From Escherichia coli (GTDB lineage Bacteria; Pseudomonadota; Gammaproteobacteria; Enterobacterales; Enterobacteriaceae): a stretch of 64,000 bases of DNA. Below are positions 857 to 19,001 of this stretch, piece by piece (position 1 is the stretch's first letter; the number at the start of each line of letters is the position of its first letter). Below the pieces are notes generated by a model. It was not told the DNA's origin. It saw nothing but the letters and a program-made list of their open reading frames with translations, and ran no database searches. The DNA is taken from assembly GCF_003018115.1 (NCBI RefSeq), contig NZ_CP027457.1. The stretch is one strand, 5' to 3'. Position numbers and translations under genes: made by a program.

Positions 857-3800
857 TCAGAAGGTCACATTCAGCGTGGCCTGACTGCTATAACCTTCAG
901 CGCTGCTGCCGTTGATGCTGTGGGCATAACCGGCCTGAACGCCCAGGGTGATATTTTCCCGGACACGGGCTTCCAGTCCGGCCTGCAGATCCAGTGAAGT
1001 GCCATTCTGTGAGGGAGAGAACGTCATCCCGCTGCCTGCGGTGGAGGTCCCCACACGCATATCACCCCGGGAGCTGAAGGTGCGGATAACGGAAGGCTGT
1101 ACCCACCAGTTCACCGGCAGTTCACGCACACTGTGTTTTGCACTGTCACGCAGGGGGGCACGGGATGAGGTGCCTTCACCAAAGGTCATATCGTTGTGGC
1201 TGCCCAGACGGAAACCGGCACGCACATGCTGTGCACTGCCATGCCCGAACTTCACATAACCGGCGTTGTCCTTACCGTCATCCAGCGAAAGCCCCTGCCA
1301 GGTGTACTGCAGCCGTGGCTCCAGCATCAGGTTGTCAGTGATACTGAAGGGCAGACCGGTTTCCAGTGAGCCCAGCCAGCCCCAGCCCCGTGCGCGGAAG
1401 TCGTTATTGCCCGATGACGCTTTCATACTGTGGCGGGTTCCCTGTGCCACAATGTCAGCCCACAGGCCGGAGGAGGTGTGTGCCAGGTTCATATATCCGC
1501 CCAGGCTGCCGGCATCATCCCGGACCGTGCCGGCGCGGGAGCCGTCATCATCCTTAACATCAACGGAAGAATGGCCTGCAGCACCATACACTCCTGTCGT
1601 CAGTGACATACCGGCGACCTCTGTTCTGAGCAGGTCACCCTCCAGACGGACGAAGCCATAGCTGCCGCTGCTTTCCGGCGTGGCCCCACGGGCAATACCG
1701 CCGTTGTTATCGTGACCGAGATGGCCGCCCTGAATGCTGAGACGGACGCTGTTATTTTCACCGTTTACACCGGTCTGATGGCTGCGGGAGCCTGCCAGAA
1801 TCCGGTCATAGTCCATTGCCTGTGTCAGCATGGAGGCGTACAGGGGGACTTCAGCACGATAACGTTCTTCACTGCGCAGATACCAGCTCTCATCACTGTC
1901 CCGGTTGAGGGTGTAGTTAAAGGCCCCGGCCTGCAGCATATTCCCCTGGACAAAAGCCCCTTCCTCCGTGGTGGCACCGTTAATGGCCTCAACCACCTGA
2001 ATACCCTTACCGGTGGTCGCCAGCCCCGTACCACTGTTGCCGGCGTTCACCAGATTCAGGATGGTTTTTCCGGTTGCCCTGCCACCGTCAATGACCAGTC
2101 TGTCAGCATTGTTCTGCGCCATATCCGGACGTACACGCAGGCTGATGGTGCCATTCTGCCCGTTCAGGTTTTTCACCTGCAGAGTTGTCGGAACGAACTT
2201 CCCTGTGCGGGCGGAGGTGAAATGAATCTGTCCGGCATGGCTGAGGTCATCCACCACCGACTGAACCGTGGCGTTATCGGGAATATTCCAGGTGGCACCA
2301 GAGGCGAGAGTGACATTCGTGGGGTCAATGGCACCGTTCAGCACTGTGCTGCCGGTCAGCTTCAGGGCCGTGCCGCGCTGAGCAATGACATCCGTGGTGA
2401 CGGTACTGTCGTTCAGCGTCAGCGTGCCTTCATTCAGGTTGACGGCTTTCTGGGTGAGTGTGGTGTTGCTGACAGTGAGTGTTCCACTTCCTGATTTTTC
2501 CACCCTGCCGTTACCGGTGAGAGAGCCTCCCTGCAGGAGTGCATCGCCTTCACGGATGGTCAGGGTATCGTTGTTCACCGTCTTCCCGGAAAGGGTAAGT
2601 ATGGCGCCGTTATTCAGCGTGGTGGTGCCCGCCAGTGTGCCGCCCCTGGCGGTGAACAGTCCGCCATTTACCGTGGTATCCGTGGCCGTATCACCGGCGT
2701 TCAGCGTGAATGAACTGCCTTTTTCCAGCATCAGGGCATCCGCCTGACCGCCTCCGATACGGAATGCCTTTCCGTCGCTCCGGGTACCACTGACAGCGGC
2801 ACCGGAATCGGCCAGCAGTACACCGCCATTTCCCATGGATACGGTGGTGGCGGTGCCACCGTTGCGGACATCCAGCGTTCCGCCATCATCCACGCGGGTA
2901 TTAGTGGCTGTGTGTCCGGTCAGCACATCCAGGCGTCCGCCATTTTCCAGTACGACATTATCAGCTTTACCCTCCACAACAGAGAATGCTCCCAGGCGGT
3001 TTATGCCGGTAACGGTTGCAGCCGTACTGGTAACCAGTGCGCCGCCCTGCTTCAGGGTGACATTCGTGGCTGTACCACCGGCGTCCACCTGCAGTCTGCC
3101 CTTCTGATTAACGGTGGTATTCCCGGCCACACCCCCGTTTTTGACAATCTGCCAGCCGTCACTGTTCACAACAGTGTCAGACGCTGTACCGCCGTTGTGC
3201 ACATACTGGTATCCCCCATTCAGCGTGGTATCCAGTGCGTGACCATGTACAGTCTGGTCGCCGCCGGCATAAACCACAGTGGTATTTGCCGTTCCTTCAG
3301 TTCTCACAATCTGGCGACCGTTTTTATTGATGGTTGTGCGTACGGCATCCCCGCGAACAAACTGCCCGGTATCACCGTTTTCTGCATCCGGTCCCCCTTC
3401 CGCCCCGGTATTAACAACGGTATCCGTTGCCACTGTACCGGGCTTGACGACCTGCCAGCCCTTATCATTAATGACGGTTCCTGTGGCTATCGCCCCCTCA
3501 TGCATCCACTGTTCGCCACCATTCAGCGTGGTGTTCACTGCCCGTCCCTGAAGGCTCTGTCCGCCTCCGGCACTGATAACCGTGTCTGAGACACTTCCAC
3601 CGGGGTTCACTCTCTGAAGACCACCACTGGTGACAGTCGTTTTGTTGGCTGTTCCGCTATCCTGTACCCATTGCCCGCCGGTATTGGCCTCATTGTCCGG
3701 CCCGTACTCCAGACCGGTACTGATGGTCATTCCGTTGACCGTACCGAAGACAATCTGGTTGTCATGATTTGTCAGTGTTCCGCCGTTCACGGTTTCTCCC

Positions 3801-3976
3801 GCCTGTACAACCGTGTCAGCAGCCAGTGCCGGGACTGACGTGACAGCAGCAAGAGACAGCGCAACCGCCACACCAGCGCGTTTTCCCCGTGAGCGGGCCA
3901 GTTCGGAGGCCACCACCAGGGTGCCCGTAATGTGATTCCATACCAGCCTGTAGCTGGTGTTCAGATGTCGTTTCAT
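857..3976 (-). CDS. flu: Antigen 43 (Ag43) self-associating autotransporter adhesin
   Basis: 1039-aa product from MKRHLNTSYRLVWNHITG (signal peptide), repetitive passenger domain, C-terminal beta-barrel ending ATLNVTF; near-identical to my recollection of Ag43. The track ORF is extended 25 codons upstream; start chosen at the Met preceded by AAGGA. Confidence 0.95.
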   Translation of the reverse strand: MKRHLNTSYRLVWNHITGTLVVASELARSRGKRAGVAVALSLAAVTSVPALAADTVVQAGETVNGGTLTNHDNQIVFGTVNGMTISTGLEYGPDNEANTGGQWVQDSGTANKTTVTSGGLQRVNPGGSVSDTVISAGGGQSLQGRAVNTTLNGGEQWMHEGAIATGTVINDKGWQVVKPGTVATDTVVNTGAEGGPDAENGDTGQFVRGDAVRTTINKNGRQIVRTEGTANTTVVYAGGDQTVHGHALDTTLNGGYQYVHNGGTASDTVVNSDGWQIVKNGGVAGNTTVNQKGRLQVDAGGTATNVTLKQGGALVTSTAATVTGINRLGAFSVVEGKADNVVLENGGRLDVLTGHTATNTRVDDGGTLDVRNGGTATTVSMGNGGVLLADSGAAVSGTRSDGKAFRIGGGQADALMLEKGSSFTLNAGDTATDTTVNGGLFTARGGTLAGTTTLNNGAILTLSGKTVNNDTLTIREGDALLQGGSLTGNGRVEKSGSGTLTVSNTTLTQKAVNLNEGTLTLNDSTVTTDVIAQRGTALKLTGSTVLNGAIDPTNVTLASGATWNIPDNATVQSVVDDLSHAGQIHFTSARTGKFVPTTLQVKNLNGQNGTISLRVRPDMAQNNADRLVIDGGRATGKTILNLVNAGNSGTGLATTGKGIQVVEAINGATTEEGAFVQGNMLQAGAFNYTLNRDSDESWYLRSEERYRAEVPLYASMLTQAMDYDRILAGSRSHQTGVNGENNSVRLSIQGGHLGHDNNGGIARGATPESSGSYGFVRLEGDLLRTEVAGMSLTTGVYGAAGHSSVDVKDDDGSRAGTVRDDAGSLGGYMNLAHTSSGLWADIVAQGTRHSMKASSGNNDFRARGWGWLGSLETGLPFSITDNLMLEPRLQYTWQGLSLDDGKDNAGYVKFGHGSAQHVRAGFRLGSHNDMTFGEGTSSRAPLRDSAKHSVRELPVNWWVQPSVIRTFSSRGDMRVGTSTAGSGMTFSPSQNGTSLDLQAGLEARVRENITLGVQAGYAHSINGSSAEGYSSQATLNVTF

Positions 3977-4348: not shown

Positions 4349-5221
4349 TCAGAAGAAAATCCAGTTCCATACCGCGCGGGCAACAGAGACCACCGAGTCA
4401 CGGACGGCACGCAGAACCGTGCGTGCAACAGAGGCAATACAGACGCTCTCCGCCGTGTCAAATATCCGGTCCACCGCACCGGTAAACTGTTCACGGGCCT
4501 GAGACCGGACAGATTCCGTGCGCAGCTCGTCCTGCAGGCGGGTCATCAGGGGGCTGGCGGCATGGTCGGGAAGCGCTGTCATGAGCGCACTGACCAGCGT
4601 ATCCAGTTCCCAGCCGGTGCGGGCCGATACGGCAACAACCGGATGTACGGGCCGGAACAGACGGAATACCGCCTCCGTTTTTTCGCGAATGTTCTGTGCC
4701 TGTGCGGGAGAAGGCTGAATGCCGGCCATATCCCATTCATGGCAGGGCTCCGTTTTGTCGGCCTGCGTCACCACAAACAGCACCTGCTGATGCCCCCGGT
4801 GCAGAATGTGTCGCCAGAAATACTCATCCACAGACAGGGCCCGGTCATCGGCTTTAATCAGCCACAGTACCAGGTCCAGTTCAGACAGAATGTTACGGTA
4901 CAGGGCTTCATACTCTGCATCCCTGTCACGGCTCTCGCCCACCCCGGGCAGGTCAGTGATAACCATGCTGTGACCGTGACCACTCAGACGGAAGCGCTGC
5001 ACTTCCCGGGTGCCGGCGTGAACATCACTGACCGGGGTGACCTCCCCCTGAAACAGTGCATTACAGAGTGAGGATTTACCGGCCCCGCTTTTCCCCATAA
5101 TGCCAATCACGGGTTCGTGACTGGTGAGTTTGCGCAGATGTTCCAGGATGTGACGGGAAAGTGAGTAAGGCAGGGAAGAAAGTGGTTTTTCAATTGCCTC
5201 AATGGCATCAGACGGATTCAT
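4349..5221 (-). CDS. yeeP: YeeP/YkfA-family GTPase (intact)
   Basis: P-loop GIMGKSGAGKSS and family-typical DLPGVGES; start set at MNPSD rather than the track's upstream extension; positioned upstream of flu as in CP4-44. Confidence 0.85.
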   Translation of the reverse strand: MNPSDAIEAIEKPLSSLPYSLSRHILEHLRKLTSHEPVIGIMGKSGAGKSSLCNALFQGEVTPVSDVHAGTREVQRFRLSGHGHSMVITDLPGVGESRDRDAEYEALYRNILSELDLVLWLIKADDRALSVDEYFWRHILHRGHQQVLFVVTQADKTEPCHEWDMAGIQPSPAQAQNIREKTEAVFRLFRPVHPVVAVSARTGWELDTLVSALMTALPDHAASPLMTRLQDELRTESVRSQAREQFTGAVDRIFDTAESVCIASVARTVLRAVRDSVVSVARAVWNWIFF

Positions 5222-5384
5222 ACATGTATTCCCGGTGAAAAAAGACAAAACCCCGCGCACCGGAAAGATGGCGGGGGATTCACGGAGATAATATCTGTCT
5301 GAAATTATTTGAAATGCAGGTATATGCAGCTAATTTGTATCAGCTTATTGGTACAGTACTAAACCTCATCTGACAGTCCGCTCT

Positions 5385-5399
5385 GTGCCAGGAGCGGAC
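5385..5399. repeat. 15-bp direct repeat copy A (GTGCCAGGAGCGGAC) within an 8-bp-stem palindrome GTCCGCTC-tgtgccag-GAGCGGAC
   Basis: Exact 15-mer shared with 6896-6910 in the same orientation; the two copies bracket the HEPN-motif gene and the short tyrosine recombinase gene. Confidence 0.6.
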
Positions 5400-5502
5400 A
5401 TTCCGATATTGAAAAGTAAATTGTCTTGCTGTATTTTTTCAGTCATAAAAATGAATAAGGATTCTCAGATGAGTGAGATATTTGAACTATTCAGTTCTAC
5501 TG

Positions 5503-6219
5503 TCAGTCCTTAAGTTTATTCATAGAAAGCCGCTCTTGGCGTTTAAGCTCATTTAAAGTGAAAAAAGCACATTTATTAGATAAAATATAAATAGTTCCTA
5601 CTAACCGATGTAAGCGCCTCATTTTTTCGGGCATAGAGAATTCAGCATTTTTGACAAACATTAAAGAATCAACCCCAGCAGAGAACATATATTGTAAACT
5701 TTCCATATTAAAAGCCTCTAGTGGATTTACTTCGTTAATATCAATACTATTAACAGACCTCTCTATTTCGAGGTAATCTTCACTTGTCATTGAATAGTCT
5801 ATTTTATGAGCGAATTTATTGCGGATAGAATTCAGCTTAACTAAAGAATTTGCAATTGAGAGAGGTAAACCTAAAGCAACACAGATCTCCAGTTTTGGAG
5901 TAAAATATCGTGATGGTTTAACGAACTGCTCAGTACCAGGCTTCCTAACATTGTTGATGAATACTTCCAAGAAATTCTCAATCAATAGGCTAAGTCTTAG
6001 CAAGACTGATGCTTCGTCATTTATACTTAGTAAAGGTGCAAATTTTTCTGCGTCAAGAAAGAAACCGAGGTCATTATTAATCGCTACATATCCAGTTAGA
6101 TTGTTATTTGACTTCATATTCATAAAAACCTTATCTTGTATATTAGCGGCATATTGTACCATAAATTGAATCGTGGTTTGTTCTAAGAATGGACACAAGA
6201 ACTTCCTCTCCTCACTCAT
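5503..6219 (-). CDS. hypothetical protein with a HEPN-like R-N-x-x-A-H motif (possible Abi-type RNase)
   Basis: AT-rich ORF; motif SIRNKFAH matches the HEPN Rx4-6H signature in its common RNxxAH form. Start uncertain: track starts at TTG 6228, ATG at 6219 (MSEER), or ATG at 6123 (MNMKS, preceded by AAGG). Confidence 0.5.
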   Translation of the reverse strand: MSEERKFLCPFLEQTTIQFMVQYAANIQDKVFMNMKSNNNLTGYVAINNDLGFFLDAEKFAPLLSINDEASVLLRLSLLIENFLEVFINNVRKPGTEQFVKPSRYFTPKLEICVALGLPLSIANSLVKLNSIRNKFAHKIDYSMTSEDYLEIERSVNSIDINEVNPLEAFNMESLQYMFSAGVDSLMFVKNAEFSMPEKMRRLHRLVGTIYILSNKCAFFTLNELKRQERLSMNKLKD

Positions 6220-6265
6220 AAGAGACAACCATACTCAAATCTCCCACATTGCAGGAGATTTGAGT

Positions 6266-6868
6266 ATGAACACGTCACCGTGGAACAAAGACCGTATCAT
6301 CGCCCAAAAAAGACCACTTCAGATATCTCATATCTGGGAGATCCGAATCCGGCTTGAACTGGAAGGTAAAACGCGCGATTTAGCTCTGTTCAATATGGCC
6401 CAGGACAGTAAGCTTCGAGGCTGTGATCTGGTCAAACTCAAAGTATCGAATGTGGCATATGGTAGCTCGGTTTCAAGCAGAGAAACGGTGTTGCAACAAA
6501 AAACCGGTAACCTTGTGCAATTCGAGATAACCAAAGGGACAAGAGAAGCTGTTGCTGCATTGATAAAGCTTGGCAATTTGCACAGTAAAGACTTCTTGTT
6601 TCGGTCTCGGGTCGGAACTAATCGGCACATATCAACCCAGCAATACAGCCGAATTTTTCATGGGTGGGTAGAAAAGCTTGGTCTCGAAGCTTCGCTGTAC
6701 AGCACACAATCCATGAGAAGAACAAAACCTTACCTAATCTACAAGAAAACCAAGAATCTCCGGATCATCCAACTTCTGTTGGGTCATAAGAAACTGGAAA
6801 GCACGATCCGTTATCTGGGCATTGAAGTCGATGATGCGTTAGAGACCTCTGAATCGATTGAAGTCTAA
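6266..6868 (+). CDS. short (~200 aa) tyrosine recombinase, catalytic domain only (FimB/FimE-sized)
   Basis: C-terminal LLGHKKLESTIRYLGIE (His...Tyr box), upstream Arg and HSMRRT boxes; start at ATG 6266 preceded by AGGAG at 6254-6258. Confidence 0.7.
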   Translation: MNTSPWNKDRIIAQKRPLQISHIWEIRIRLELEGKTRDLALFNMAQDSKLRGCDLVKLKVSNVAYGSSVSSRETVLQQKTGNLVQFEITKGTREAVAALIKLGNLHSKDFLFRSRVGTNRHISTQQYSRIFHGWVEKLGLEASLYSTQSMRRTKPYLIYKKTKNLRIIQLLLGHKKLESTIRYLGIEVDDALETSESIEV

Positions 6869-6895
6869 GGTTGTCAGAGCTGCAATAGCAGCCCC

Positions 6896-6910
6896 GTGCC
6901 AGGAGCGGAC
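6896..6910. repeat. 15-bp direct repeat copy B (GTGCCAGGAGCGGAC)
   Basis: Exact match to 5385-5399, same orientation, 28 nt past the recombinase stop codon. Confidence 0.6.
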
Positions 6911-7026
6911 CTAACTAAGTTCATACAACATTGATTATTGAAGATTAGGTCAGAAATAAATACTTTATTTTGATAATTTAGTTACGTTAGAACACCGCAA
7001 TGTACAACGTAAAAATGAGGAATAAT

Positions 7027-8388
7027 ATGACTCGGAGTGAAATAAACGTCTGGGATGAGAGAAGAGGTACCAATAGTCATCGAGTGGAGGAGATTCGATC
7101 TGAAGCTCAGCACGACCTTTCTCGATTGATTCACTCGTCTGCTTTCAGACGATTACAATCCAAAACACAGGTTCTTGGTCTGGGTGAAAGTGATTTCTAC
7201 CGCACACGACTGACTCATTCTATGGAAGTCGCACAAATCGGTTCAGGTCTTCTTGCTAAGTTGAAAATAAAATATAAAGGTAAAGAGCAAGAGCAATTTT
7301 TACCAGATAACGCTCTTATGCAGGCAGTATGTCTCGCACATGATATTGGACATCCTCCATTTGGTCACGGCGGTGAGGTAGCTCTTAACTACTGTATGCA
7401 GGATTACGGTGGTTTTGAAGGAAACGGTCAGACGCTTCGCATTCTCTCGAAACTAGATAAGTATACCTTAGAACACGGACTCGATCCTACACGCAGACTT
7501 CTGCTAGGCATACTGAAATATCCGGTTAAATACTCGGAGCTAGTGGTTACAAAAGACAGAATCCCGGTCACTATCGGATCACCAAACTGGCTCTTTAAGT
7601 CATCTGATTTTAAACCTCCAAAATGCTATCTAGATTCAGAATGCGATGTTGTAAAATTTGCTCTCTCACCATTTACTGAACAGGATCGGAGGCTTTTTAC
7701 TTCCGTTGAAGATGGTCAAACTAAATCCGATCATAAAAAAGCTTCTTATAAAGCTCTCGATACAACTATAATGGATCTTGCCGATGAAATTTCGTATTCG
7801 CTGCACGATTTGGAGGATGCTATTTCTCTCGGAATGGTGACACGAGAAATGTGGATGGAGCATTTCAGTGAACATGAAACCCTATTTACTAACTGCCATG
7901 GAAAAATATTTTCCGAAACATGCCAATCTGTAGCGGATAGCCTTTTTGGTGAAAGTTACAAGAGAAAAGAGTGCATCGGGATGCTGGTTCACCTGATGAT
8001 TACAAGCGTTGAGCTTATTACAAAGAATCCAGCATTCGAATGTGGCATGCTCAAATATAATGCGGTCCTTCCGGAAGCGGTCGAAGCACTACGGTTGAAA
8101 ATTTTCAAACTGGTCAAAAATAAAGTAATTAAGCATGAAAATGTACAGCAGCTTGAATTCAAGGGACAAAAGTTGATTGTTGAGCTCTTCGGTGTGTTGG
8201 CGAACGATCCGTGTCGGTTTCTACCTGCCTCAACGAGGGAAATTTACGAGCGGCAGACTAGCTTAGACAAGAAGGCTGGTATGCGAGTCATTTGCGACTA
8301 TGTTTCAGGGATGACTGATGACTATGCAACAAAGCTTTATGAGAAGATCCTTATTCCACGCAAAGGGTCTATTTTTGACCATCTCTAA
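7027..8388 (+). CDS. dGTP triphosphohydrolase-like HD-domain protein (candidate anti-phage dGTPase)
   Basis: HD motifs RLTHSMEV, HDIGHPPFGH, DLADEISYSLHDLEDA, YVSGMTDDYA; alignable by eye to E. coli Dgt but AT-rich and shorter (453 aa); start at ATG 7027 with GAGG six nt upstream. Confidence 0.8.
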   Translation: MTRSEINVWDERRGTNSHRVEEIRSEAQHDLSRLIHSSAFRRLQSKTQVLGLGESDFYRTRLTHSMEVAQIGSGLLAKLKIKYKGKEQEQFLPDNALMQAVCLAHDIGHPPFGHGGEVALNYCMQDYGGFEGNGQTLRILSKLDKYTLEHGLDPTRRLLLGILKYPVKYSELVVTKDRIPVTIGSPNWLFKSSDFKPPKCYLDSECDVVKFALSPFTEQDRRLFTSVEDGQTKSDHKKASYKALDTTIMDLADEISYSLHDLEDAISLGMVTREMWMEHFSEHETLFTNCHGKIFSETCQSVADSLFGESYKRKECIGMLVHLMITSVELITKNPAFECGMLKYNAVLPEAVEALRLKIFKLVKNKVIKHENVQQLEFKGQKLIVELFGVLANDPCRFLPASTREIYERQTSLDKKAGMRVICDYVSGMTDDYATKLYEKILIPRKGSIFDHL

Positions 8389-8449
8389 CACGGTAAGAAT
8401 GATACTCTGAGTTCAATTGACCTATAAACATTAACCAAGGCATCTACCA

Positions 8450-8470
8450 GGGGGGATATCAAATCCCCCC
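8450..8470 (+). terminator. GC-stem hairpin downstream of the dGTPase-like gene
   Basis: GGGGGGAtatcaaaTCCCCCC inverted repeat about 60 nt after the stop codon; the T-tract is weak. Confidence 0.35.
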
Positions 8471-9414
8471 ATTCTGAATTTGTTCATGCAGAATCGGTGA
8501 ACGTTCTCATCTGAGCGTTAAACGCCAATAATCATTGATCTACACTGATCATTAATACACCTTAATACCATTAGCGTCTTACTCCGTTATGAGAACAAAC
8601 GCGAACTTCCGCTGTTCGCTCAAAGCAGACCATTCGCTCAGTTAACGCATCAGTGTCGTGCTAGAAGTAGAAGTGGTTAACAACAATGTGAGTTAATCAA
8701 CGGAGAGCAGGTCAACTCTAACCTGTATCAAAAAACAAATGTGTCATAAAGATGCCGCATGCCTTAATTTGAGTATAATTGAGACGGAAGTAGACGGTTT
8801 ATGACTAGATATTGTTGATATATAGCTATTTGAAGAGTTGTAGCGCAAGCGCATAGCCCAAACTAATAACGCTACGCCCCTTATCAAAGAGCGGCAACGA
8901 TGCACAGCTCGCACGAGACAATATTCGCACAAGAAATCAGGTTCGGAAATAACCAGCTCTGGCATGGCGGGGAGAGTATCAATGGTCAGGCTTTCGGTAA
9001 GATGCGGCGGGATGAGGTCGGCGTGGGTTACAGCAGTACAAGGTCGCCCACAGAGGGTAAGCCACAGCGTGGAATCCTCGGTTTCTATCAGGGATTCGGC
9101 GAAGCGGGCGCAGTTGTCGACCAAGACGATGAAATCCATTGTGGCATTATAAGGGAACGAACAATAGATCGAGTAAATCGCAGTCAGGGACAAGGATTGT
9201 AGTCATAGAGAAGTCTCCTGTAACGGTTTTCAGGAGGCTAATCCCGACGCCTGATTTCGCAGGCGCGGAAAGAGAGGATACTGCGACCATTAATCCGCCA
9301 CAAGTCATTTACGTACATAAATCGCGCAGTCAGATCCGACTCCCACTGTAGTTCTTGAACTTGATACCACATTTAGCTAATTTAGCTAAATTATCCAGTA
9401 TACCAGTGGTTGCC

Positions 9415-9660
9415 ATGAATATGAATGAAGATGAGATTTATCGCCATATCCGGCAGGCACTTTCCAGTGCGCCGCGTAACCAGTACACCGTCGAGCTACA
9501 CCTGCAAATGATTAAATATGCCGACGAACTGGAACACATTACGGCAAAAGCCTTTTGCGAAGGCACCGGTCTGAGCCAGAGCCTCGGTACCGAATTCAGC
9601 AAAATGCGTAACTTAACCCGTCGGTTGAAGGCCGCCGGTCTGAATACCGATCTGCTGTAA
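9415..9660 (+). CDS. small hypothetical protein immediately upstream of hsdM
   Basis: ORF 9355-9660 has protein-like composition but no convincing Shine-Dalgarno before TTG 9355 or ATG 9415/9421; ends 40 nt before hsdM. Confidence 0.3.
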   Translation: MNMNEDEIYRHIRQALSSAPRNQYTVELHLQMIKYADELEHITAKAFCEGTGLSQSLGTEFSKMRNLTRRLKAAGLNTDLL

Positions 9661-9699
9661 CCGACTTACGGCAGATTATCGCGCAAAACGAGATATTTA

Positions 9700-12138
9700 A
9701 TGGCTATCAAAAAAACCGAACTCTATTCTTCCCTGTGGGCAAGCTGCGACGAACTGCGTGGCGGGATGGACGCCAGCCAGTACAAAGACTATGTACTGAC
9801 CCTGCTGTTTATGAAGTACGTTTCCGATAAGTATAAAGGCGATCCTTACGGGATGATCGTGATACCCAAAGGAGCCAGCTTTGACGATATGGTTGCGCTG
9901 AAAAATGACAAAGAGATCGGCGACAAAATCAACAAAATCATCCACAAGCTGGCGGAAGAGAACGGCCTGAAGGGCGTCATCGACGAAGCCGACTTTAACG
10001 ACGAAGATAAGCTCGGCAAAGGCAAGGAAATGATTGACCGCCTGAGCAAGCTTGTCGGTATCTTTGAAGGGTTAGATCTCTCCAGCAACCGGGCCGAAGG
10101 CGACGATCTGTTGGGCGATGCCTATGAATATCTGATGCGTCACTTCGCAACCGAATCCGGCAAGAGTAAAGGGCAGTTTTACACTCCGGCGGAGGTGTCA
10201 CGTATTCTGGCGAAGGTGATTGGTATTACTCCCGATACGCCGCGAGATGCAACGGTTTATGACCCAACCTGTGGCTCTGGTTCGCTGCTGTTGAAAGTGA
10301 ATGATGAAGCCCGGCGCGGACTATCGATTTTCGGCCAGGAGATGGATAACGCTACCAGTGCACTGGCGCGGATGAACATGATTCTGCATAACAATGCCAC
10401 CGCGAAAATCTGGCAGGGTAATACGCTGAGCGATCCGCAGTGGAAAGAGGCGAACGGCAAACTGAAAGCCTTCGATTTTGCCGTGGCGAACCCGCCTTTT
10501 TCCAATAAAAACTGGACCAACGGGTTGACGCCGAAAAAAGATCCGTTTGAACGCTTCGGCTGGGGCATTCCGCCGGAGAAAAACGGCGATTATGCTTTTT
10601 TGCTGCATATCATTAAAAGCCTGAAAAGTACCGGCAAAGGCGCGGTGATCCTGCCCCATGGCGTACTGTTTCGCGGTAACGCCGAGGCAAATATCCGTGA
10701 AAATCTAATCAAGCAGGGCTATATCAAAGGCGTTATTGGTTTGCCGGCCAACCTGTTTTACGGCACCGGCATCCCGGCGTGCATTATTGTGATTGATAAA
10801 GAGCACGCCCACAGCCGCAAAGGCATTTTTATGATCGACGCCAGTCGGGGCTTTATCAAAGATGGCAACAAGAACCGCCTGCGTAGCCGAGATATTCACC
10901 GCATTGTGGACGTGTTCAACCATCAGCGAACGGTGCCGGGCTACAGCCGGATGGTGCCCTCCAGCGAGATCGCCGGAAATGATTACAACCTGAATATTCC
11001 TCGCTATATCGAGAGCGGCGAGCCGGAAGATTTGCACGATCTGACCGCGCACTTACAGGGCGGTATTCCAGCACGCGATGTGGATGCTTTGCAGGATTAC
11101 TGGCGGGTATTCCCTGCCCTGCGCAACGTGCTGTTTGCTGACGACCGTTCCGGTTACTGTCGGGCGCAGGTGAACGCGCAGCAGGTGAAACCAACCATTC
11201 TGGCACATCAGGAGTTTAAGGATTTTGCCACCCGCAGCCTGCTACCGTTTAAAGCGTGGGTGAAAGAGGCAAGTCTGGAAGAGATTCGCAAAGGTGATAA
11301 ACCCAAAGCGCTGATCCACGATATCAGCGAGATGTTGCTTGTGCAGTACGCCAACAGTGAGTTGCTGAACAAGTACAGCGTGTACCAGATCCTGATGGAT
11401 TACTGGGCTGATGTCATGCAGGACGATGTGTATGTGATTATGCAGGATGGCTGGCAAGCCGCCGCGCAAATCCGCGAGCTTCAACCGGTGAAAGGCAAAG
11501 ATGGCAAAAACATCTGGAAAGAAACGCACGATTTCGAGTTTACCAAACAGCGCTACAAGGCCGATGTGCTACCCCGTTCACTAGTGGAAATTCGCTGCTT
11601 CCCGGAACTGCTGGATACGTTGAACCGCGCGCAGGAGCGCAGTGAAGAAGCCAGTCGTCAGCTAGCGGAACTCATCGAGGAGCAGGCAGGGGAAGAGGAT
11701 CTGCTGGCTGAGGCGAAGAACGATAAAGATAAGGTGACGCAAAAGCTGGTGAATGCCCGTCTGGCACAGTTGAAGAAAACCCCTGCCGACCCAGATGAGC
11801 TGGCAGTGCTGAACCGCTGTCTGGCGCTGATTAAGGCCGAGGCCAGTGCGAAAAAAGCGCTGAAAGCCGCACAGGAAGCGTTGGATCGAGCGGTATTTAA
11901 ACATTATCCCACGCTGGATGAAACAGCGATTAAAACGCTGGTAGTGCAGGATAAGTGGCTGGCAACGTTGCAGGCAGGAATCAAGGCGGAGATTGAGCGT
12001 ATTACCCAGCAACTGGCGTCGCGCGTAAAGGAGCTGGAAGAGCGTTATGCTGAACCGTTGCCAGCGCTTGAAGCCTCCGTTGAGGCGTTGAGCGAGAAAG
12101 TGGCCGGGCATTTGCGGGCGATGGGGCTGGAGTGGTGA
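9700..12138 (+). CDS. hsdM: type I restriction-modification N6-adenine DNA methyltransferase subunit, long form (812 aa)
   Basis: N-terminal HsdM signature LWASCDELRGGMDASQYKDYVLTLLFMKYVSD, AdoMet motif DPTCGSGSLL, catalytic NPPF; about 300-aa C-terminal extension rich in charged/coiled-coil-like residues. Confidence 0.95.
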   Translation: MAIKKTELYSSLWASCDELRGGMDASQYKDYVLTLLFMKYVSDKYKGDPYGMIVIPKGASFDDMVALKNDKEIGDKINKIIHKLAEENGLKGVIDEADFNDEDKLGKGKEMIDRLSKLVGIFEGLDLSSNRAEGDDLLGDAYEYLMRHFATESGKSKGQFYTPAEVSRILAKVIGITPDTPRDATVYDPTCGSGSLLLKVNDEARRGLSIFGQEMDNATSALARMNMILHNNATAKIWQGNTLSDPQWKEANGKLKAFDFAVANPPFSNKNWTNGLTPKKDPFERFGWGIPPEKNGDYAFLLHIIKSLKSTGKGAVILPHGVLFRGNAEANIRENLIKQGYIKGVIGLPANLFYGTGIPACIIVIDKEHAHSRKGIFMIDASRGFIKDGNKNRLRSRDIHRIVDVFNHQRTVPGYSRMVPSSEIAGNDYNLNIPRYIESGEPEDLHDLTAHLQGGIPARDVDALQDYWRVFPALRNVLFADDRSGYCRAQVNAQQVKPTILAHQEFKDFATRSLLPFKAWVKEASLEEIRKGDKPKALIHDISEMLLVQYANSELLNKYSVYQILMDYWADVMQDDVYVIMQDGWQAAAQIRELQPVKGKDGKNIWKETHDFEFTKQRYKADVLPRSLVEIRCFPELLDTLNRAQERSEEASRQLAELIEEQAGEEDLLAEAKNDKDKVTQKLVNARLAQLKKTPADPDELAVLNRCLALIKAEASAKKALKAAQEALDRAVFKHYPTLDETAIKTLVVQDKWLATLQAGIKAEIERITQQLASRVKELEERYAEPLPALEASVEALSEKVAGHLRAMGLEW

Positions 12139-13445
12139 TGGTGGATTTAATGGTGAATGAGCAACGATCAGGTACGGCGGGGAAAGATGTGCCTGCGGGG
12201 TATAAGCTGACTGAGGTGGGGGTGATTCCTGAGGATTGGGTAGTAATCTCTATTGATGACTGTACAACCAAAGTTGGTAGTGGAAAAACACCAACTGGTG
12301 GAGCATCTGTTTATATTGATAGCGGACGCCCTTTTGTCCGTAGCCAAAATGTTGATTGGGGAAGATTAGATCTCGCCGATGTCGTACATATTACAGATGA
12401 AACCCATAACACATTCTCTGGTTCTGAAATTCAGCAAGATGATGTTTTACTCAACATAACGGGAGCATCTATCGGCCGATGCGCTAAAGCTGATTTTAGG
12501 GTTATAGGTGGTAATGTTAACCAACATGTTTGCATCATCAGAACAGAGGCAAAAAAACTCTCCCCATCCTTACTGGTTGAATTAATCAATTCAAATTATG
12601 GACAAAACCAGATTGATAGTTATCAAGCCGGAGGAAACAGAGAAGGACTGAATTTTTCTCAAGTTAAAAATCTTAAGTTTGCTATTACACCAAACTCCCT
12701 TGAACAAACGGAAATTGTCAGAACATTAAATGATATTAATGCATTCACTCTCGCTCTGGAAAACTTAATTGCTAAAAAACAGGCCATAAAAGCCGCTGCT
12801 ATGCAACAACTACTCACCGGTAAAACCCGTTTGCCGCAGTTTGCGTTGCGCAAAGATGGATCTGCTAAGAGATATAAAAAGAGCAAGTTGGGGGAGACTC
12901 CAGAAGATTGGGCAGTTAATAATATTGGAGATTTATTCTCCATTACCGCAGGAGGAGATTTAAGACAGTCTGAATTCTCTAATATTCAATCTGAAAAACA
13001 TCTTTACCCTATTTATTCCAATGCAATTAGTCATTATGGTTTATATGGCTATTGCCAGAGTTATGATTATGTTGGTGACTATCTAACAATCACTGCGAGG
13101 GGAGGAATCGGCCATGCCGTGGCAAGAAAAGGAAGATTCTGTGCAATTGGACGATTATTAGTTCTTAGTCCAAAAGGAGATTCAAACGTAAAATTTTATG
13201 AAGGGTATATAAACCAATACTTATCATTTGCAAATGAGAGCACTGGAGTCCCTCAACTTACAGCTCCTCAAGTTGCAAAATATCCGGTTGTTTCCCCATG
13301 CATTGAAGAACAAACCGCCATCGCCACCATCCTCTCCGATATGGACAAGGAAATTCAGACCCTGCAACAACGTCTGGACAAAACCCGTCAGCTTAAACAG
13401 GGGATGATGCAGGAGCTGTTAACCGGGAAAACACGCTTAATATAA
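12138..13445 (+). CDS. hsdS: type I restriction-modification specificity subunit with two target-recognition domains
   Basis: Two AT-rich variable blocks separated and followed by conserved LTGKTRL repeats ([13 protein letters not shown] and [11 protein letters not shown]); ATG at 12138 overlaps the hsdM TGA (TGATG). Confidence 0.9.
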
Positions 13446-13456
13446 AAGGGAAACCT

Positions 13457-14107
13457 ATGACTACAGCGCCAGCCTCAATCCGCAAAAAGCCCTGATCTGG
13501 CGTATCGTCCATCGGGACAATATCCCGTGGATTCTGGACAATGGTCTGCACTGCGGCAACAGCCCGGTGCAGGCTGCTAACTGGATCAATATCGGCAACC
13601 CGGAGCTTATCGGCAAGCACGCCGGACATCCGGTACCTGTCGGGACGGGCGGGACACTGCGTGACTATGTGCCATTTTATTTTACCCCCTTCTCGCCAAT
13701 GCTGATGAACATCCACAGCGGACGTGGCGGCATTAAGCAACGCCCCAATGAAGAGATCGTTATTCTGGTCAGCAGCCTGCGGCACGTGGCAGCACACGAC
13801 GTGCCCTTCGTGTTTACCGACAGCCATGCTTACTATAACTGGACCAACTACTACACCAGTCTGGATAGTCTGGACCAGATCGACTGGCCCATTTTGCAGG
13901 CACGGGACTTTCGCCGCGATCCAGACGATCCGGCTAAATTTGAACGCTATCAGGCAGAGGCGCTAATCTGGCAACACTGCCCGATCTCGCTGCTGGATGG
14001 GATAATTTGTTACAGCGAAGAGGTCAGGTTACAATTAGAACAATGGTTGTTTCAGCGTAATCTAACAATGTCCGTTCACACACGGGCTGGATTGGTACTT
14101 CTCATGA
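13457..14107 (+). pseudogene. darT: DarT-like (DUF4433) DNA ADP-ribosyltransferase gene, reading frame disrupted as read
   Basis: ATG 13457 with AAGGG upstream opens a frame that stops after 12 codons; DarT-like sequence ([46 protein letters not shown]) continues in the -1 frame from about 13459 to 14103; the original frame resumes for the last codons before a TGA that overlaps the darG ATG (ATGA at 14104-14107). Confidence 0.55.
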
Positions 14108-15171
14108 TCACATATACACAAGGCAATTTACTGGACGCACCGGTGGAAGCTCTGGTGAATACGGTTAATACCGTCGGTGTCATGGGGAAAGGCATCGCGT
14201 TGATGTTTAAAGAGCGCTTCCACGAAAATATGAAAGCCTATGCCCTCGCCTGCAAACAAAAGCAGGTGATCACCGGCAAAATGTTCATTACCGAAACCGG
14301 GGAACTGATGGGACCGCGCTGGATTGTTAATTTTCCGACCAAACAGCACTGGCGCGCTGACTCCCGCATGGGGTGGATTGAAGATGGCTTACAAGACTTA
14401 CGTCGATTTTTGATTGAAGAGAACGTGCAATCCATCGCCATTCCACCGCTGGGCGCAGGCAACGGTGACTTGAACTGGCCGGACGTTCGGGCGCAGATTG
14501 AATCTGCCCTTGGCGACCTTCAGGACGTTGATATCCTGATTTACCAACCAACTGAAAAATACCAGAACGTTGCCAAAAGCACTGGCGTAAAAAAGCTCAC
14601 TCCCGCCAGAGCCGCCATCGCTGAACTGGTGCGTCGCTACTGGGTATTGGGGATGGAGTGCAGCCTACTGGAAATCCAGAAACTGGCCTGGCTGTTACAA
14701 CGCGCCCTTAAGCAGCATCAACAGGACGATATCCTCAAACTGCGGTTTGAAGCTCACTATTATGGCCCCTATGCGCCCAATCTGAACCATCTGCTTAATG
14801 CGCTGGACGGCACCTATCTTAAAGCCGAGAAACGCATCCCGGACAGCCAACCGCTGGATGTGATCTGGTTTAACGATCAGAAAAAAGAACACGTTAATGC
14901 GTATCTGAACAGCGAAGCCAGAGAGTGGCTACCGGCGCTGGAGCAGGTCAGCCAGTTAATTGACGGCTTTGAATCGCCGTTTGGTCTGGAGCTGCTGGCA
15001 ACCGTAGACTGGTTGCTGAGCCGTGGCGAATGTCAACCAACACTGGATTCCGTTAAGGAAGGGCTGCACCAGTGGCCTGCGGGCGAACACTGGGCCAGCC
15101 GTAAGTTGAGGCTGTTTGATAATAATAATCTGCAATTTGCCATTAACCGCGTAATGGAGTTCCATTGCTGA
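14104..15171 (+). CDS. darG: DarG-like macrodomain protein (predicted antitoxin / ADP-ribosyl hydrolase)
   Basis: [39 protein letters not shown] with IPPLGAGNG is a macrodomain signature matching my recollection of DarG; as read it is fused in frame to the upstream DarT-like region (track ORF 13567-15171). Confidence 0.7.
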
Positions 15172-15189
15172 GGGTTTAAGGAGCGCCTT

Positions 15190-18100
15190 TTGAGTACCGT
15201 GGGCCAGCGCGAACGCGCCACACAGCAGCGTCTGATTCAGTTTTTTGTTGAAGATTTAGGTTACCGCCATCTGAGTCACCGCACCGGGTACACCGGGAAC
15301 AGCAACATCGACACTAATATACTGAGCGCGTGGCTAAAACGGCGCGGCGTTAATGATACGTTGATCACCCGGGCGTTGCGGCAACTGGATTCCGCCGCCG
15401 CTCTGGGCGAAGGCAAAAAACTCTATTACGCCAATAAAGAGGTCTATCGCCTGCTACGTTACGGCGTGAAAGACAAAGAAGGCGCAGGCGAGCAGAACCA
15501 AACCGTGTGGCTGATTGACTGGGCCAACCCACAAGCCAATGATTTCGCCATCGCCGATGAGGTGACGGTCAAAGGCGAGTACTGCAAGCGCCCGGATCTG
15601 GTGCTGTACGTTAACGGCATTGCGCTGGGCGTGATTGAACTTAAGCGTTCGTCAGTGCACGTCAGCGAAGGCATCCGGCAGAATCTCGATAATCAAAAGA
15701 AAACCTTTATCCGCGATTTCTTCACCACTATGCAGTTAGTGATGGCGGGCAACGATACGCAGGGCCTGCGCTACGGCACCATCGAAACCCCGGAAAAATA
15801 CTATCTGGAGTGGAAAGAAGATAATCCAGGCGACTATACACATAAACTCGACTTTCATTTAAGTCGTCTGTGTAGCAAATCCAGGCTGTTGGATATCGTC
15901 CATAATTACATTGCCTTTGATGTCGGAGTGAAAAAACTCTGCCGCCATAATCAGTTCTTCGGCGTCGAGGCGGCTAAACAACATATTGCCCGTCGTGAAG
16001 GCGGTATTATCTGGCACACACAGGGATCGGGTAAAAGCCTGACGATGGTCTGGCTGGCGAAGTGGATCCGTGAAAATGTGCCAAACTCCCGCGTGTTGAT
16101 TGTGACTGACCGCACCGAACTGGATGAACAGATCGAAAGCGTGTTTATGGGCGTGAATGAAGATATTTATCGCACCTCCAGCGGCAACGATCTTATCGCA
16201 ACGCTCAATCATCCTAACCCGTGGCTCATTTGCTCGCTGGTGCATAAATTTGGTCGTCGCAGCGAAGCTGAAGACAATGCGGCTACCGACGCCTTTATCA
16301 CCGAATTACAGCAGTCCCTGACGAAAACATTCCGCGCCAAAGGCGATCTGTTTGTTTTTGTGGACGAGTGCCACCGCACACAATCCGGCAAGCTGCATAA
16401 CGCCATGACTGCCATTCTGCCGGACGCCCTGTTTATCGGTTTTACCGGCACACCGCTGATGAAGAAAGATAAGAAGAAGTCGGTTGAGGTGTTCGGCCCT
16501 TATATCCATACCTATAAATTTGATGAAGCGGTGGCCGACGGTGTGGTGCTGGATCTGCGCTACGAGGCACGCGATATTGACCAGTATCTGACATCAGAGA
16601 AAAAGGTCGATGACTGGTTTGAAGCCAAGACTCGCGGTTTGTCGAATTTAGCCAGGACCCAGCTTAAGCAAAAGTGGGGATCAATGCAGAAGCTGCTCTC
16701 CAGCAAGTCGAGGCTGGAGCAGATCGTTAACGACATTTTGCTGGATATGGATACCCGTCCACGCCTGATGGACGGGCGCGGCAACGCCATGCTGGTATGC
16801 AGCAGTATCTATCAAGCCTGCAAGGTTTACGAGATGTTCAGCCAGACCGAGCTGGCAGGAAAAGTAGCGATTGTGACCAGCTATCGCCCCGATGCCGCCA
16901 GCATCAAAGGCGAAGAAACGGGCGAAGGGTTAACGGAGAAACTCTCTAAACACGCCACCTATCGTAAAATGTTGGCTGACTATTTTGAACAAAGTGAAGA
17001 GAAGGCCGCCGCACGCATTACCGAGTTCGAGCGGGAAGTGAAACAGCGTTTTATTGAAGAGCCGGGGCAAATGCGCCTGCTTATCGTGGTGGATAAGCTG
17101 CTGACTGGCTTTGACGCGCCGTCCGCCACCTATCTCTACATTGATAAAACCATGACCGACCATACGCTGTTTCAGGCGATTTGTCGGGTGAACCGGCTGG
17201 ACGGTGAGGATAAAGAGTATGGCTATATTATCGATTATAAAGATCTGTTCCGTTCGCTGGATAAAGCGATTACCGATTACACCACGGGCGCGTTTGATGA
17301 TTACGATCGGGACGATGTGGCCGGGTTGCTGAAAGACAGGCTGGAGCAGGCGCAACTGGATCTCGACAGCGCGCTGGAGATGGTTCGCAGCTTATGTGAA
17401 CCCGTCAAAACCCCGCGCAGCCTGCAGGACTATCAGCACTATTTTTGCGGTGAATCAGGAGAGAATCAGACTTCGTTAAACGAAAAAGAGGCGCTGCGCC
17501 TGACATTTTACCAGTGCGTCGCCCGTCTGCTACGCGCTTATGCCAGCATCGCCAATGAAATGCCGGAAGCAGGCTACACTGCCGAAGAGGTAGAGAGCAT
17601 TCGCGCCGAAGTCGCTGAATTCGAAAAACTGCGCTATGAGATTAAGCTGACCAGCGGCGATCTTCTGGATATGAAGCGCTTTGAACCCGCTATGCGTCAT
17701 TTACTGGATATGTATGTTCGCGCCGATGATAGCGAAGTGCTGATGGATTTTGAAGAGTTAAGTCTGATTGAACTGATTGTCGAGAAAGGCTTGGCGGCGA
17801 CCGTCGCCCTGCCGGATGATATCCGTAATAATCAGGATGCGATGGCGGAAACCATCGAAAACAACGTGCGCAAAACCATCGTGGATGAAAACCCGGTTAA
17901 CCCAAAATACTATGGACGCATGTCGCAGCTGCTGGATGAACTGATTACCCTTCGCCGACAAAATGCGCTCAATTATCAGCAGTATCTGGAACGTATCCGC
18001 GATTTGTGTAAACAAGTCATCCGCCCGGAGCAAACCGCCGGAGCGTGCTACCCTGCCACCATGGATACACAAGCAAAGCGCGCCTTCTATGATAACTTCG

Positions 18101-18285
18101 GCCACGACGAGGTACTGGCGACCCGCATAGATACGACGATTCGCTATACCAAAAGGGCAGAGTGGATTGGCGATCGTTTTAAAGAACGGGAAATTGCCAA
18201 CGCATTACGTGAAGAGACCGCCAGCTATAATATTGATATTGATGAGGTGATAGCGCTTGCCCGTCAGCAGAAGGAATATCACTGA
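15190..18285 (+). CDS. hsdR: type I restriction-modification restriction subunit (SF2 helicase/nuclease)
   Basis: 1031 aa; helicase motifs HTQGSGKSLT, VFVDECHRTQ, FIGFTGTP; apparent TTG start at 15190 with AAGGAG eight nt upstream. Confidence 0.93.
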   Translation: MSTVGQRERATQQRLIQFFVEDLGYRHLSHRTGYTGNSNIDTNILSAWLKRRGVNDTLITRALRQLDSAAALGEGKKLYYANKEVYRLLRYGVKDKEGAGEQNQTVWLIDWANPQANDFAIADEVTVKGEYCKRPDLVLYVNGIALGVIELKRSSVHVSEGIRQNLDNQKKTFIRDFFTTMQLVMAGNDTQGLRYGTIETPEKYYLEWKEDNPGDYTHKLDFHLSRLCSKSRLLDIVHNYIAFDVGVKKLCRHNQFFGVEAAKQHIARREGGIIWHTQGSGKSLTMVWLAKWIRENVPNSRVLIVTDRTELDEQIESVFMGVNEDIYRTSSGNDLIATLNHPNPWLICSLVHKFGRRSEAEDNAATDAFITELQQSLTKTFRAKGDLFVFVDECHRTQSGKLHNAMTAILPDALFIGFTGTPLMKKDKKKSVEVFGPYIHTYKFDEAVADGVVLDLRYEARDIDQYLTSEKKVDDWFEAKTRGLSNLARTQLKQKWGSMQKLLSSKSRLEQIVNDILLDMDTRPRLMDGRGNAMLVCSSIYQACKVYEMFSQTELAGKVAIVTSYRPDAASIKGEETGEGLTEKLSKHATYRKMLADYFEQSEEKAAARITEFEREVKQRFIEEPGQMRLLIVVDKLLTGFDAPSATYLYIDKTMTDHTLFQAICRVNRLDGEDKEYGYIIDYKDLFRSLDKAITDYTTGAFDDYDRDDVAGLLKDRLEQAQLDLDSALEMVRSLCEPVKTPRSLQDYQHYFCGESGENQTSLNEKEALRLTFYQCVARLLRAYASIANEMPEAGYTAEEVESIRAEVAEFEKLRYEIKLTSGDLLDMKRFEPAMRHLLDMYVRADDSEVLMDFEELSLIELIVEKGLAATVALPDDIRNNQDAMAETIENNVRKTIVDENPVNPKYYGRMSQLLDELITLRRQNALNYQQYLERIRDLCKQVIRPEQTAGACYPATMDTQAKRAFYDNFGHDEVLATRIDTTIRYTKRAEWIGDRFKEREIANALREETASYNIDIDEVIALARQQKEYH

Positions 18286-19001
18286 TGCCAATCATGCAAA
18301 TAGGCTCGTTACACTTGCTGGTCAACCGTAAGGCGATTAAGAATCTGCATATCAGCGTGCTGCCGCCTGATGGCAAAGTCCGCGTTTCAGCGCCGGAACA
18401 TATGACGGAGACGGCGATTCGTATGGCGGTTGCTTCACGCTTTCGCTGGATCAGAAAACAGCAGCAGGATTTCGCCAGACAGCCTCGTCAATCAGAGAGG
18501 GAAATGGTCAGCGGAGAGTGCCACTATCTTTGGGGCCGAAGATATCGCCTACTTGTGATTGAGCGTCACGGGCGTCACGAAGTAAAAGTTGCGGGAAATA
18601 ATAAGCTCCAGCTTTATGTTCAACCGGGAACCCGTGATGAAAATAAGGCATTGGCGTTAAGTGAATTTTATCGACATGAACTAAAACAGCAGGTGGCTAA
18701 GCTTCTACCTGAATGGCAGGACCGAATCGGTGTTCCCCTAACATTCTGGGGCATCAAAAAGATGAAAACCTTTTGGGGCACCTGTAACACTACAACAAAA
18801 CGAATCTGGCTCAATCTGGAGCTAATTAAGAAGCCGCCGGAGTGTCTGGAGTATATTCTGGTGCATGAACTGGTTCATCTTCTGGAACGTCACCATAATG
18901 CTCGCTTCCGGTTGCATATGGATCGGTTTATTCCTGACTGGCGTGAGCGTCGGGATTTGTTAAATAATATGCCGTTAGCGTTTGAGGCATGGGAGTATTG
19001 A
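18285..19001 (+). CDS. HExxH zinc metallopeptidase (M48/DUF45-like) coupled to hsdR
   Basis: HELVHLLE motif; ATG overlaps the hsdR stop (TGATG at 18283-18287). Confidence 0.8.
   Translation: MPIMQIGSLHLLVNRKAIKNLHISVLPPDGKVRVSAPEHMTETAIRMAVASRFRWIRKQQQDFARQPRQSEREMVSGECHYLWGRRYRLLVIERHGRHEVKVAGNNKLQLYVQPGTRDENKALALSEFYRHELKQQVAKLLPEWQDRIGVPLTFWGIKKMKTFWGTCNTTTKRIWLNLELIKKPPECLEYILVHELVHLLERHHNARFRLHMDRFIPDWRERRDLLNNMPLAFEAWEY

Follow-up and report, generated by a model that had tools for sequence, protein, structure and literature searches.

RptR and its operator were described experimentally in the EPEC strain E2348/69 by Zhang et al. (Nucleic Acids Res 2025, PMC12255303). In this strain the gene for RptR opens the 'RRDM' island, which comprises RptR, a Type I restriction-modification (R-M) system, DarTG2 and an M48 protein, in the order rptR-hsdM-hsdS-darTG-hsdR-M48 (PMC12255303). 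RptR is a homodimer whose crystal structure was solved at 1.3 angstrom (PDB 9R2Z), and the PDB contains no close homologue of this structure (PMC12255303). The EPEC promoter contains a -35 box (TTGAAC) and, 14 bp downstream, a functional 5' -10 box with the sequence AGCTAATTT, which is overlapped by three 9-bp direct repeats of the sequence TTTAGCTAA (PMC12255303). Electrophoretic mobility shift assays (EMSA) showed that RptR dimers bind the repeats cooperatively, with a KD of 185 nM and a Hill coefficient of 3.4; the minimal site is TAGCTA, and TAGATA, TATCTA and TATATA are also accepted, as positions G5 and C6 are flexible (PMC12255303). In a GFP reporter RptR represses approximately 10-fold, two repeats suffice, and a construct designated DR1/2/s is repressed as well as the wild type, while phage infection of EPEC raises hsdM expression approximately 15-fold (PMC12255303). 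The same study reported that the RptR site is conserved in 80 promoters, found Type I R-M systems next to rptR in 54 of 117 cases, described the modules other than restriction-modification systems as of 'unknown function', and drew an analogy between RptR and the C proteins of R-M systems (PMC12255303).

The DNA analysed here, a stretch of 64,000 nucleotides from E. coli (hereafter the window), carries a locus that closely resembles the EPEC island. The two share an RptR protein that is identical at 77 of 79 residues, the repeat unit TTTAGCTAA and the gene order rptR-hsdM-hsdS-darT-darG-hsdR-M48, and every defining feature of the RptR system that can be tested in silico was found at the window locus. 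They differ in their repeats, as the window has two perfect copies followed by ATTATCCAG, whereas EPEC has three perfect copies followed by CTTATCCAT. They also differ in their hsdS alleles (40% identity), in darT, which is a pseudogene in the window, and in their left flanks, where the window has a dGTPase gene in contrast to the IS elements of EPEC. The repeats are the already published RptR sites, whose mechanism, structure and conservation have been known since 2025, and nothing in them is fundamentally new, because a near-identical E. coli allele was published in that year (PMC12255303). A literature search by family name (PF24718 or HTH_73) returned nothing relevant, and a search with the motif string led to PMC12255303.

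An earlier note on this DNA had drawn attention to two adjacent self-complementary octamers at 9373-9389, and these positions proved to be exact. The octamer TTAGCTAA is present at 9373-9380 and 9382-9389, in the context cacaT-TTAGCTAA-T-TTAGCTAA-Attatccag, and at no other place in the 64-kb window, in which 0.77 copies are expected. The pair is far beyond chance: when up to three mismatches are allowed, 0.18 matches to the 17-mer TTAGCTAANTTAGCTAA are expected in the window, and two were found, one at 9373-9389 without mismatches and one at 9382-9398, shifted by one unit, with three. The second match is a degenerate third unit of the array. Repeat searches returned the same element in two forms, as a 9-nt tandem direct repeat (ATTTAGCTA, two copies, 9371-9388) and as an inverted repeat with perfect arms of 10+10 nt (ATTTAGCTAA/TTAGCTAAAT, 9371-9391), and the TAGCTA hexamers at 9374 and 9383 are the sole pair with 9-bp spacing in the whole window. 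Read unit by unit, the context is ...TTGAACTTGATACCACA-TTTAGCTAA-TTTAGCTAA-ATTATCCAG-TATACC.... The first two units on the plus strand, DR-a (9372-9380, core TAGCTA at 9374-9379) and DR-b (9381-9389, core TAGCTA at 9383-9388), each have the sequence TTTAGCTAA and correspond to RptR-binding repeats defined in EPEC by EMSA and mutagenesis (PMC12255303). The third unit, ATTATCCAG (9390-9398, plus strand), has the core TATCCA, which differs by one mismatch, at a core position, from the tolerated hexamer TATCTA. The functional unit is the 9-bp direct repeat TTTAGCTAA with its 6-bp core TAGCTA, and the part conserved across species is the octamer TTAnnTAA. No further RptR arrays were found in the window, whether ahead of hsdR, ahead of the dGTPase gene or elsewhere. 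The best other array match (14 of 18 positions, 6960-6994) lies in AT-rich DNA just 5' of the dGTPase gene; it contains no accepted hexamer pair and is probably an AT-rich chance occurrence.

The gene immediately downstream of the array is rptR (9421-9660, plus strand, 240 nt), which encodes a 79-aa repressor recorded in RefSeq as WP_024175231, 'HTH-like domain-containing protein'. Its sole Pfam match is to PF24718 (HTH_73; E=2.6e-29, residues 4-73), and a phmmer search against the PDB returned 9R2Z_A (E=1.3e-47), to which it is 97.5% identical, with differences only at residues 2 and 36 (N2D and E36K, read from the window protein to 9R2Z). The window protein retains the published DNA-contact residues E58, S60 and K61 in helix-alpha4, as well as the published dimer-interface residues V24, E25, L65, R68, L69, A72 and L74. 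Most of these contact and interface residues are invariant in an alignment of 30 homologues from across the Gammaproteobacteria, which are 73-92% identical to the window protein. The earlier note had placed the repeats inside or just before a small open reading frame that it considered dubious. They do lie inside the TTG-started frame at 9355-9660, but this 101-aa frame is merely the coding sequence extended mechanically upstream to a TTG codon; the 688 RptR homologues are mostly 79 aa in length and begin at the equivalent of the ATG at 9421. As the coding sequence starts at this ATG, the repeats lie outside it, 32-49 bp before the start of a genuine gene, and the assignment as dubious was mistaken. 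An 11-bp-stem hairpin (ATCTGCTGTAA/TTACGGCAGAT; dG -15.3, z -3.8) spans the rptR stop codon at 9650-9676. In a conservation test it was weaker in EPEC and confined to close enterobacterial relatives, and although it might modulate read-through, it probably has no part in the conserved mechanism.

The promoter of the window aligns base for base with that of EPEC E2348/69, with few or no differences in the -35 box, the 14-bp spacer or the functional 5' -10 box, and the lone structural difference is one extra 9-bp TTTAGCTAA unit in EPEC. In the column-by-column alignment the -35 box TTGAAC (9355-9360, plus strand) is identical to the EPEC -35 box that was mapped by scrambling. The -10 box AGCTAATTT (9375-9383, plus strand; hexamer TAATTT at 9378-9383) corresponds to the functional 5' -10 box of EPEC in both sequence and spacing, as it begins 14 bp after the -35 box and extends across the DR1/DR2 junction. 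A generic sigma-70 scan returned only unrelated sites and did not call the rptR promoter, because the TAATTT/TTGAAC combination falls below its 9/12 rule. The repeats might instead be promoter elements only, in which case they would be duplicated -10-like boxes (AGCTAATTT) generated by repeat slippage that have no operator role. The DR junction does form the functional -10 box, and the repeat copy number varies between two and three among E. coli lineages, as this account would have it. However, the array is retained together with the protein across the Gammaproteobacteria even where the -10 box differs, its conserved positions form a palindromic TTA..TAA and show no TATAAT pattern, and direct binding and repression of the EPEC allele were demonstrated by EMSA and in reporter experiments (PMC12255303). 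We therefore regard a promoter role alone, without operator function, as highly improbable.

An Rfam scan of positions 8300-9800 produced no match at the repeats. The only matches, both sub-threshold, were on the minus strand upstream of them, at 9205-9279: isrK reached 39.2 bits against a gathering score of 50, and c4-a1b1 reached 38.2 bits against 46.7. Copies of a 74-nt segment at 9213-9286, approximately 92% identical, are present in about 800 further E. coli genomes; most copies are unannotated and some adjoin a gene for an 'ash family protein', and this segment forms the left end of the homology between the window and the EPEC island.

From these comparisons it is very probable that RptR, the dimeric 79-aa repressor whose gene follows directly, uses the repeats as its operator. 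One RptR dimer would bind each 9-bp unit by recognizing the 6-bp palindrome TAGCTA, and neighbouring dimers on DR-a and DR-b would bind cooperatively, perhaps along with one on the weak third unit. As the occupied units would cover the -10 hexamer and the predicted start region, RNA polymerase would be blocked. Repression at this single promoter would act on rptR itself and presumably on hsdM-hsdS-darT(pseudo)-darG-hsdR-M48, and such negative autoregulation would keep expression of the island at a low set-point. The window allele, with two perfect units and a degenerate third, corresponds to the DR1/2/s construct, and because that construct was repressed like the wild type (PMC12255303), we infer that RptR binds and represses the window allele and that this allele behaves like its EPEC counterpart. 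This supports the proposal of the earlier note that the repeats could act as an operator of the restriction operon, as a near-identical EPEC promoter is repressed through these repeats in EMSA and GFP experiments (PMC12255303).

A small autoregulator that heads an R-M operon and acts on palindromes repeated within its promoter resembles the C proteins of Type II R-M systems, an analogy also drawn in PMC12255303. Were RptR a switch of this type, it would both activate and repress, so as to delay restriction after entry into a new host. However, C proteins have an Xre-type HTH, recognize C-box pairs of approximately 35 bp across adjacent major grooves, activate and then repress transcription, and are usually encoded before the endonuclease gene, whereas RptR has an HTH_73 fold, is modelled over one major groove on a 6-bp palindrome, and is encoded before hsdM rather than a nuclease gene. 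No Xre/HTH_3 or HTH_31 fold was matched in the protein, only HTH_73, and its sites are 6-bp palindromes in 8-9-bp units with a 9-bp period, in contrast to C-boxes, which span approximately 12-15 bp per dimer. Repression alone has been observed, and a C-protein-type switch is very unlikely. RptR also resembles the WYL proteins BrxR/CapW and the CapH/CapP pair, as all are repressors located 5' of diverse anti-phage systems that form portable modules and are induced on infection. These regulators have unrelated folds and sensor domains or partner proteases, whereas the 79 residues of RptR make up one domain, for which no sensor is known.

The array bears a further likeness to the operator of a foreign repressor. 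The KorA operator OA of the IncP plasmid RK2 (GTTTAGCTAAAC) has the palindrome TTTAGCTAAA in common with the middle of the RptR array, a similarity of sequence only, and of its 12 bases the inner 10 match positions 9380-9391 (ATTTAGCTAAAT). A repressor such as KorA could conceivably bind here in addition to, or instead of, RptR, and an incoming plasmid would then silence the restriction island of its host. At 9380-9391, however, the outer G/C pair of the operator is missing, no KorA gene is involved, and the likeness may be a coincidental convergence on TAGCTA. OA is moreover a single 12-bp site for an unrelated 101-aa HTH repressor and, unlike the RptR array, is not a 9-bp tandem array. Binding by such a foreign repressor seems very unlikely, and the resemblance may reflect either coincidence or cross-talk.

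We inspected the 90 nt before the start codon in 80 loci with rptR homologues from other species, drawn from one-genome-per-species contigs. Arrays were scored against three TTAnnTAA octamers at a 9-bp period (18 fixed positions), with a cut-off of at least 16 of 18. By this measure an array of the form TTAnnTAA(W), with two or three units, precedes the homologous small gene in 68 of the 80 loci (26 of these arrays are perfect), and at least two accepted hexamers are present in 70 of 79 upstream regions; the search upstream of homologous loci that the earlier note had proposed as a check thus recovered the motif. The distance from the end of the array to the start codon ranges from 14 to 44 nt and is 21-28 nt in most loci, whereas elsewhere in the 589 kb of all loci only two arrays reach the cut-off. 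The array might also be a chance AT-rich, low-complexity repeat without function, an idea for which the short unit length alone speaks. It is refuted by the conservation of the array, whose position is kept in most loci and which is nearly absent elsewhere, and by the low number of matches expected in the window even with three mismatches. Like the three alternatives discussed above, this one is unlikely, and its probability is close to nil.

Among the 60 distinct arrays, the T-T-A..T-A-A positions carry 1.3-2.0 bits in each unit, the central dinucleotide (GC or TA) carries 1 bit, and the junction base carries approximately 1 bit. Within the octamer TTAnnTAA, conservation of the outer T and A equals that of the published 6-bp core. 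The first junction base is T in 42 of the 60 arrays and the second is A in 47 of 60, which makes most arrays, including that of the window, palindromic about their middle unit, though they have been described as direct repeats. A conventional 16-bp HTH operator, TAATTTAG|CTAAATTA (9378-9393), whose half-sites would centre on the junctions between units, was also considered. It was rejected because the junction base is constrained only to W (approximately 1 bit) while TTA..TAA within the units reaches 1.3-2 bits, and because the published point-mutation EMSAs place recognition at the intra-unit TAGCTA (PMC12255303). Second copies of rptR in Photorhabdus (L065 and L069, 65-67% identical) are positioned before an 875-aa AAA_21 system, and their upstream 90 nt contain only a degraded array (11 of 18; ...TTATATCCTTTATATGA...).

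Comparison of E. coli alleles indicates how the repeat number varies within the species. Of the 248 E. coli records with this locus, from 247 genomes, only 4, all of the E2348/69 lineage, have three TTTAGCTAA units, on a 150-nt span; for the remaining records the identity bands imply a form of 141 nt with two repeats. Because only records of this lineage have three units, the EPEC model strain, whose three-unit array (10071-10100 of its locus, L085) was compared with 9372-9398 of the window, is the exception and two repeats are the norm in E. coli. In most E. coli alleles the third unit is CTTATCTAT, with the core TATCTA, an accepted site, and the window-type core TATCCA is found in 5 genomes. 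The window differs from strain 2014C-4135 by 20 mismatches in 19.7 kb, none of which fall within 5184-17903, a segment that includes the rptR promoter region. The set-point of repression may be tuned by the gain and loss of 9-bp units, with two in nearly all E. coli and three in E2348/69. In E. coli FXCREC123 an IS5 element interrupts DR-a and has duplicated its TTAG target (L002 positions 4806 and 6001, equivalent to 9372/9376 of the window), such that the -35 box is one full IS5 length from the -10 box and operator; the TTAG/CTAA of the repeat fits the YTAR target of IS5.

By RefSeq annotation and Pfam, a defence operon with a Type I R-M system begins with rptR, in the same order as in EPEC; all of its genes are on the plus strand. 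The first defence gene after rptR is hsdM (9700-12138, 812 aa, Pfam N6_Mtase and HsdM_N), which is 97.8% identical to EPEC HsdM and starts 311 bp from the repeats, in agreement with the approximately 310 bp given earlier. It is followed by hsdS, the gene for the specificity subunit (12132-13445). EPEC HsdS is only 40% identical to its product, while HsdM and HsdR (15190-18285, 1031 aa, 99.6%) are 98-99.6% identical to their EPEC counterparts, which indicates that the specificity subunit has been swapped. The darT toxin gene between hsdS and hsdR (pseudogene 13454-14107; 13446-14107 by wider limits) is dead in the window strain: a 7-bp deletion between CCTATG repeats at the start codon causes loss of frame at codon 2, and a 1-nt indel near the 3' end joins the remnant to the frame of darG (open reading frame 13567-15171). 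The antitoxin gene darG itself (14104-15171, macro domain, by annotation and Pfam) is intact. The last RRDM gene encodes an M48 family metallopeptidase (18285-19001), whose RefSeq annotation was mapped over from a near-identical record. The genes from hsdM to M48 are presumably co-transcribed from the rptR promoter, and internal promoters for hsdR or M48 are possible.

The gene downstream of the rptR cassette was classified in 78 loci. Type I R-M systems of four different families account for 37 loci, followed by Ppl-like AAA with Schlafen/AlbA_2 proteins (8), unclassified systems (7) and the 875-aa AAA_21 system (5). Three loci each have Gabija (L027, L035 and L041; GajA E=6e-256, GajB E=4e-288), a type III-like N6_N4 MTase with ResIII, HKD+Snf2, or an Hsp70-like protein with AAA, and two have DUF6998. 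Single loci have GmrSD_N, a D12 MTase with HerA, a DUF3732 ATPase, a C5 MTase, a system with Schlafen/AlbA_2 first, a 613-aa SMC/AAA protein, or a Gp49-like toxin. The idea that the array is an hsd-specific element was rejected, as Type I R-M systems are downstream in only 37 of the 78 classified loci. Besides the Gabija loci, the non-Type-I loci with rptR and the array directly upstream are L070, L073, L079, L077, L078 and L082, together with L009-L015, L018, L020, L031, L034, L059, L057, L066 and L072. Locus L017 contains a second array (ATATATAAATTAGCTAAATTATATAG, 16 of 18, 2760-2785), which lies approximately 170 nt upstream of an Abi_2-family gene (open reading frame 2958-3905). This gene has no rptR of its own, the only rptR of the locus being 1.2 kb downstream of the second array, and such an orphan array before Abi_2 suggests regulation in trans. 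On balance we favour the view that rptR and its array form a general, portable leader module and not a regulator peculiar to Type I R-M, one that would place many unrelated anti-phage systems under one repression/de-repression signal and be tuned by repeat number. Beyond PMC12255303, the two-repeat norm in E. coli, the cassette before Gabija and other systems and the IS5 element in the operator are minor additions.

The repeats are a genuine operator that could be recognized from sequence alone. Few transcriptional controls of Type I R-M systems are known, and the array with RptR is one of them; through it a minimal 79-aa repressor controls the expression of a Type I restriction/DarTG defence island. 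The observations on repeat number, the Gabija cassettes and the IS5 insertion could help to explain how RptR repression is relieved during phage infection.
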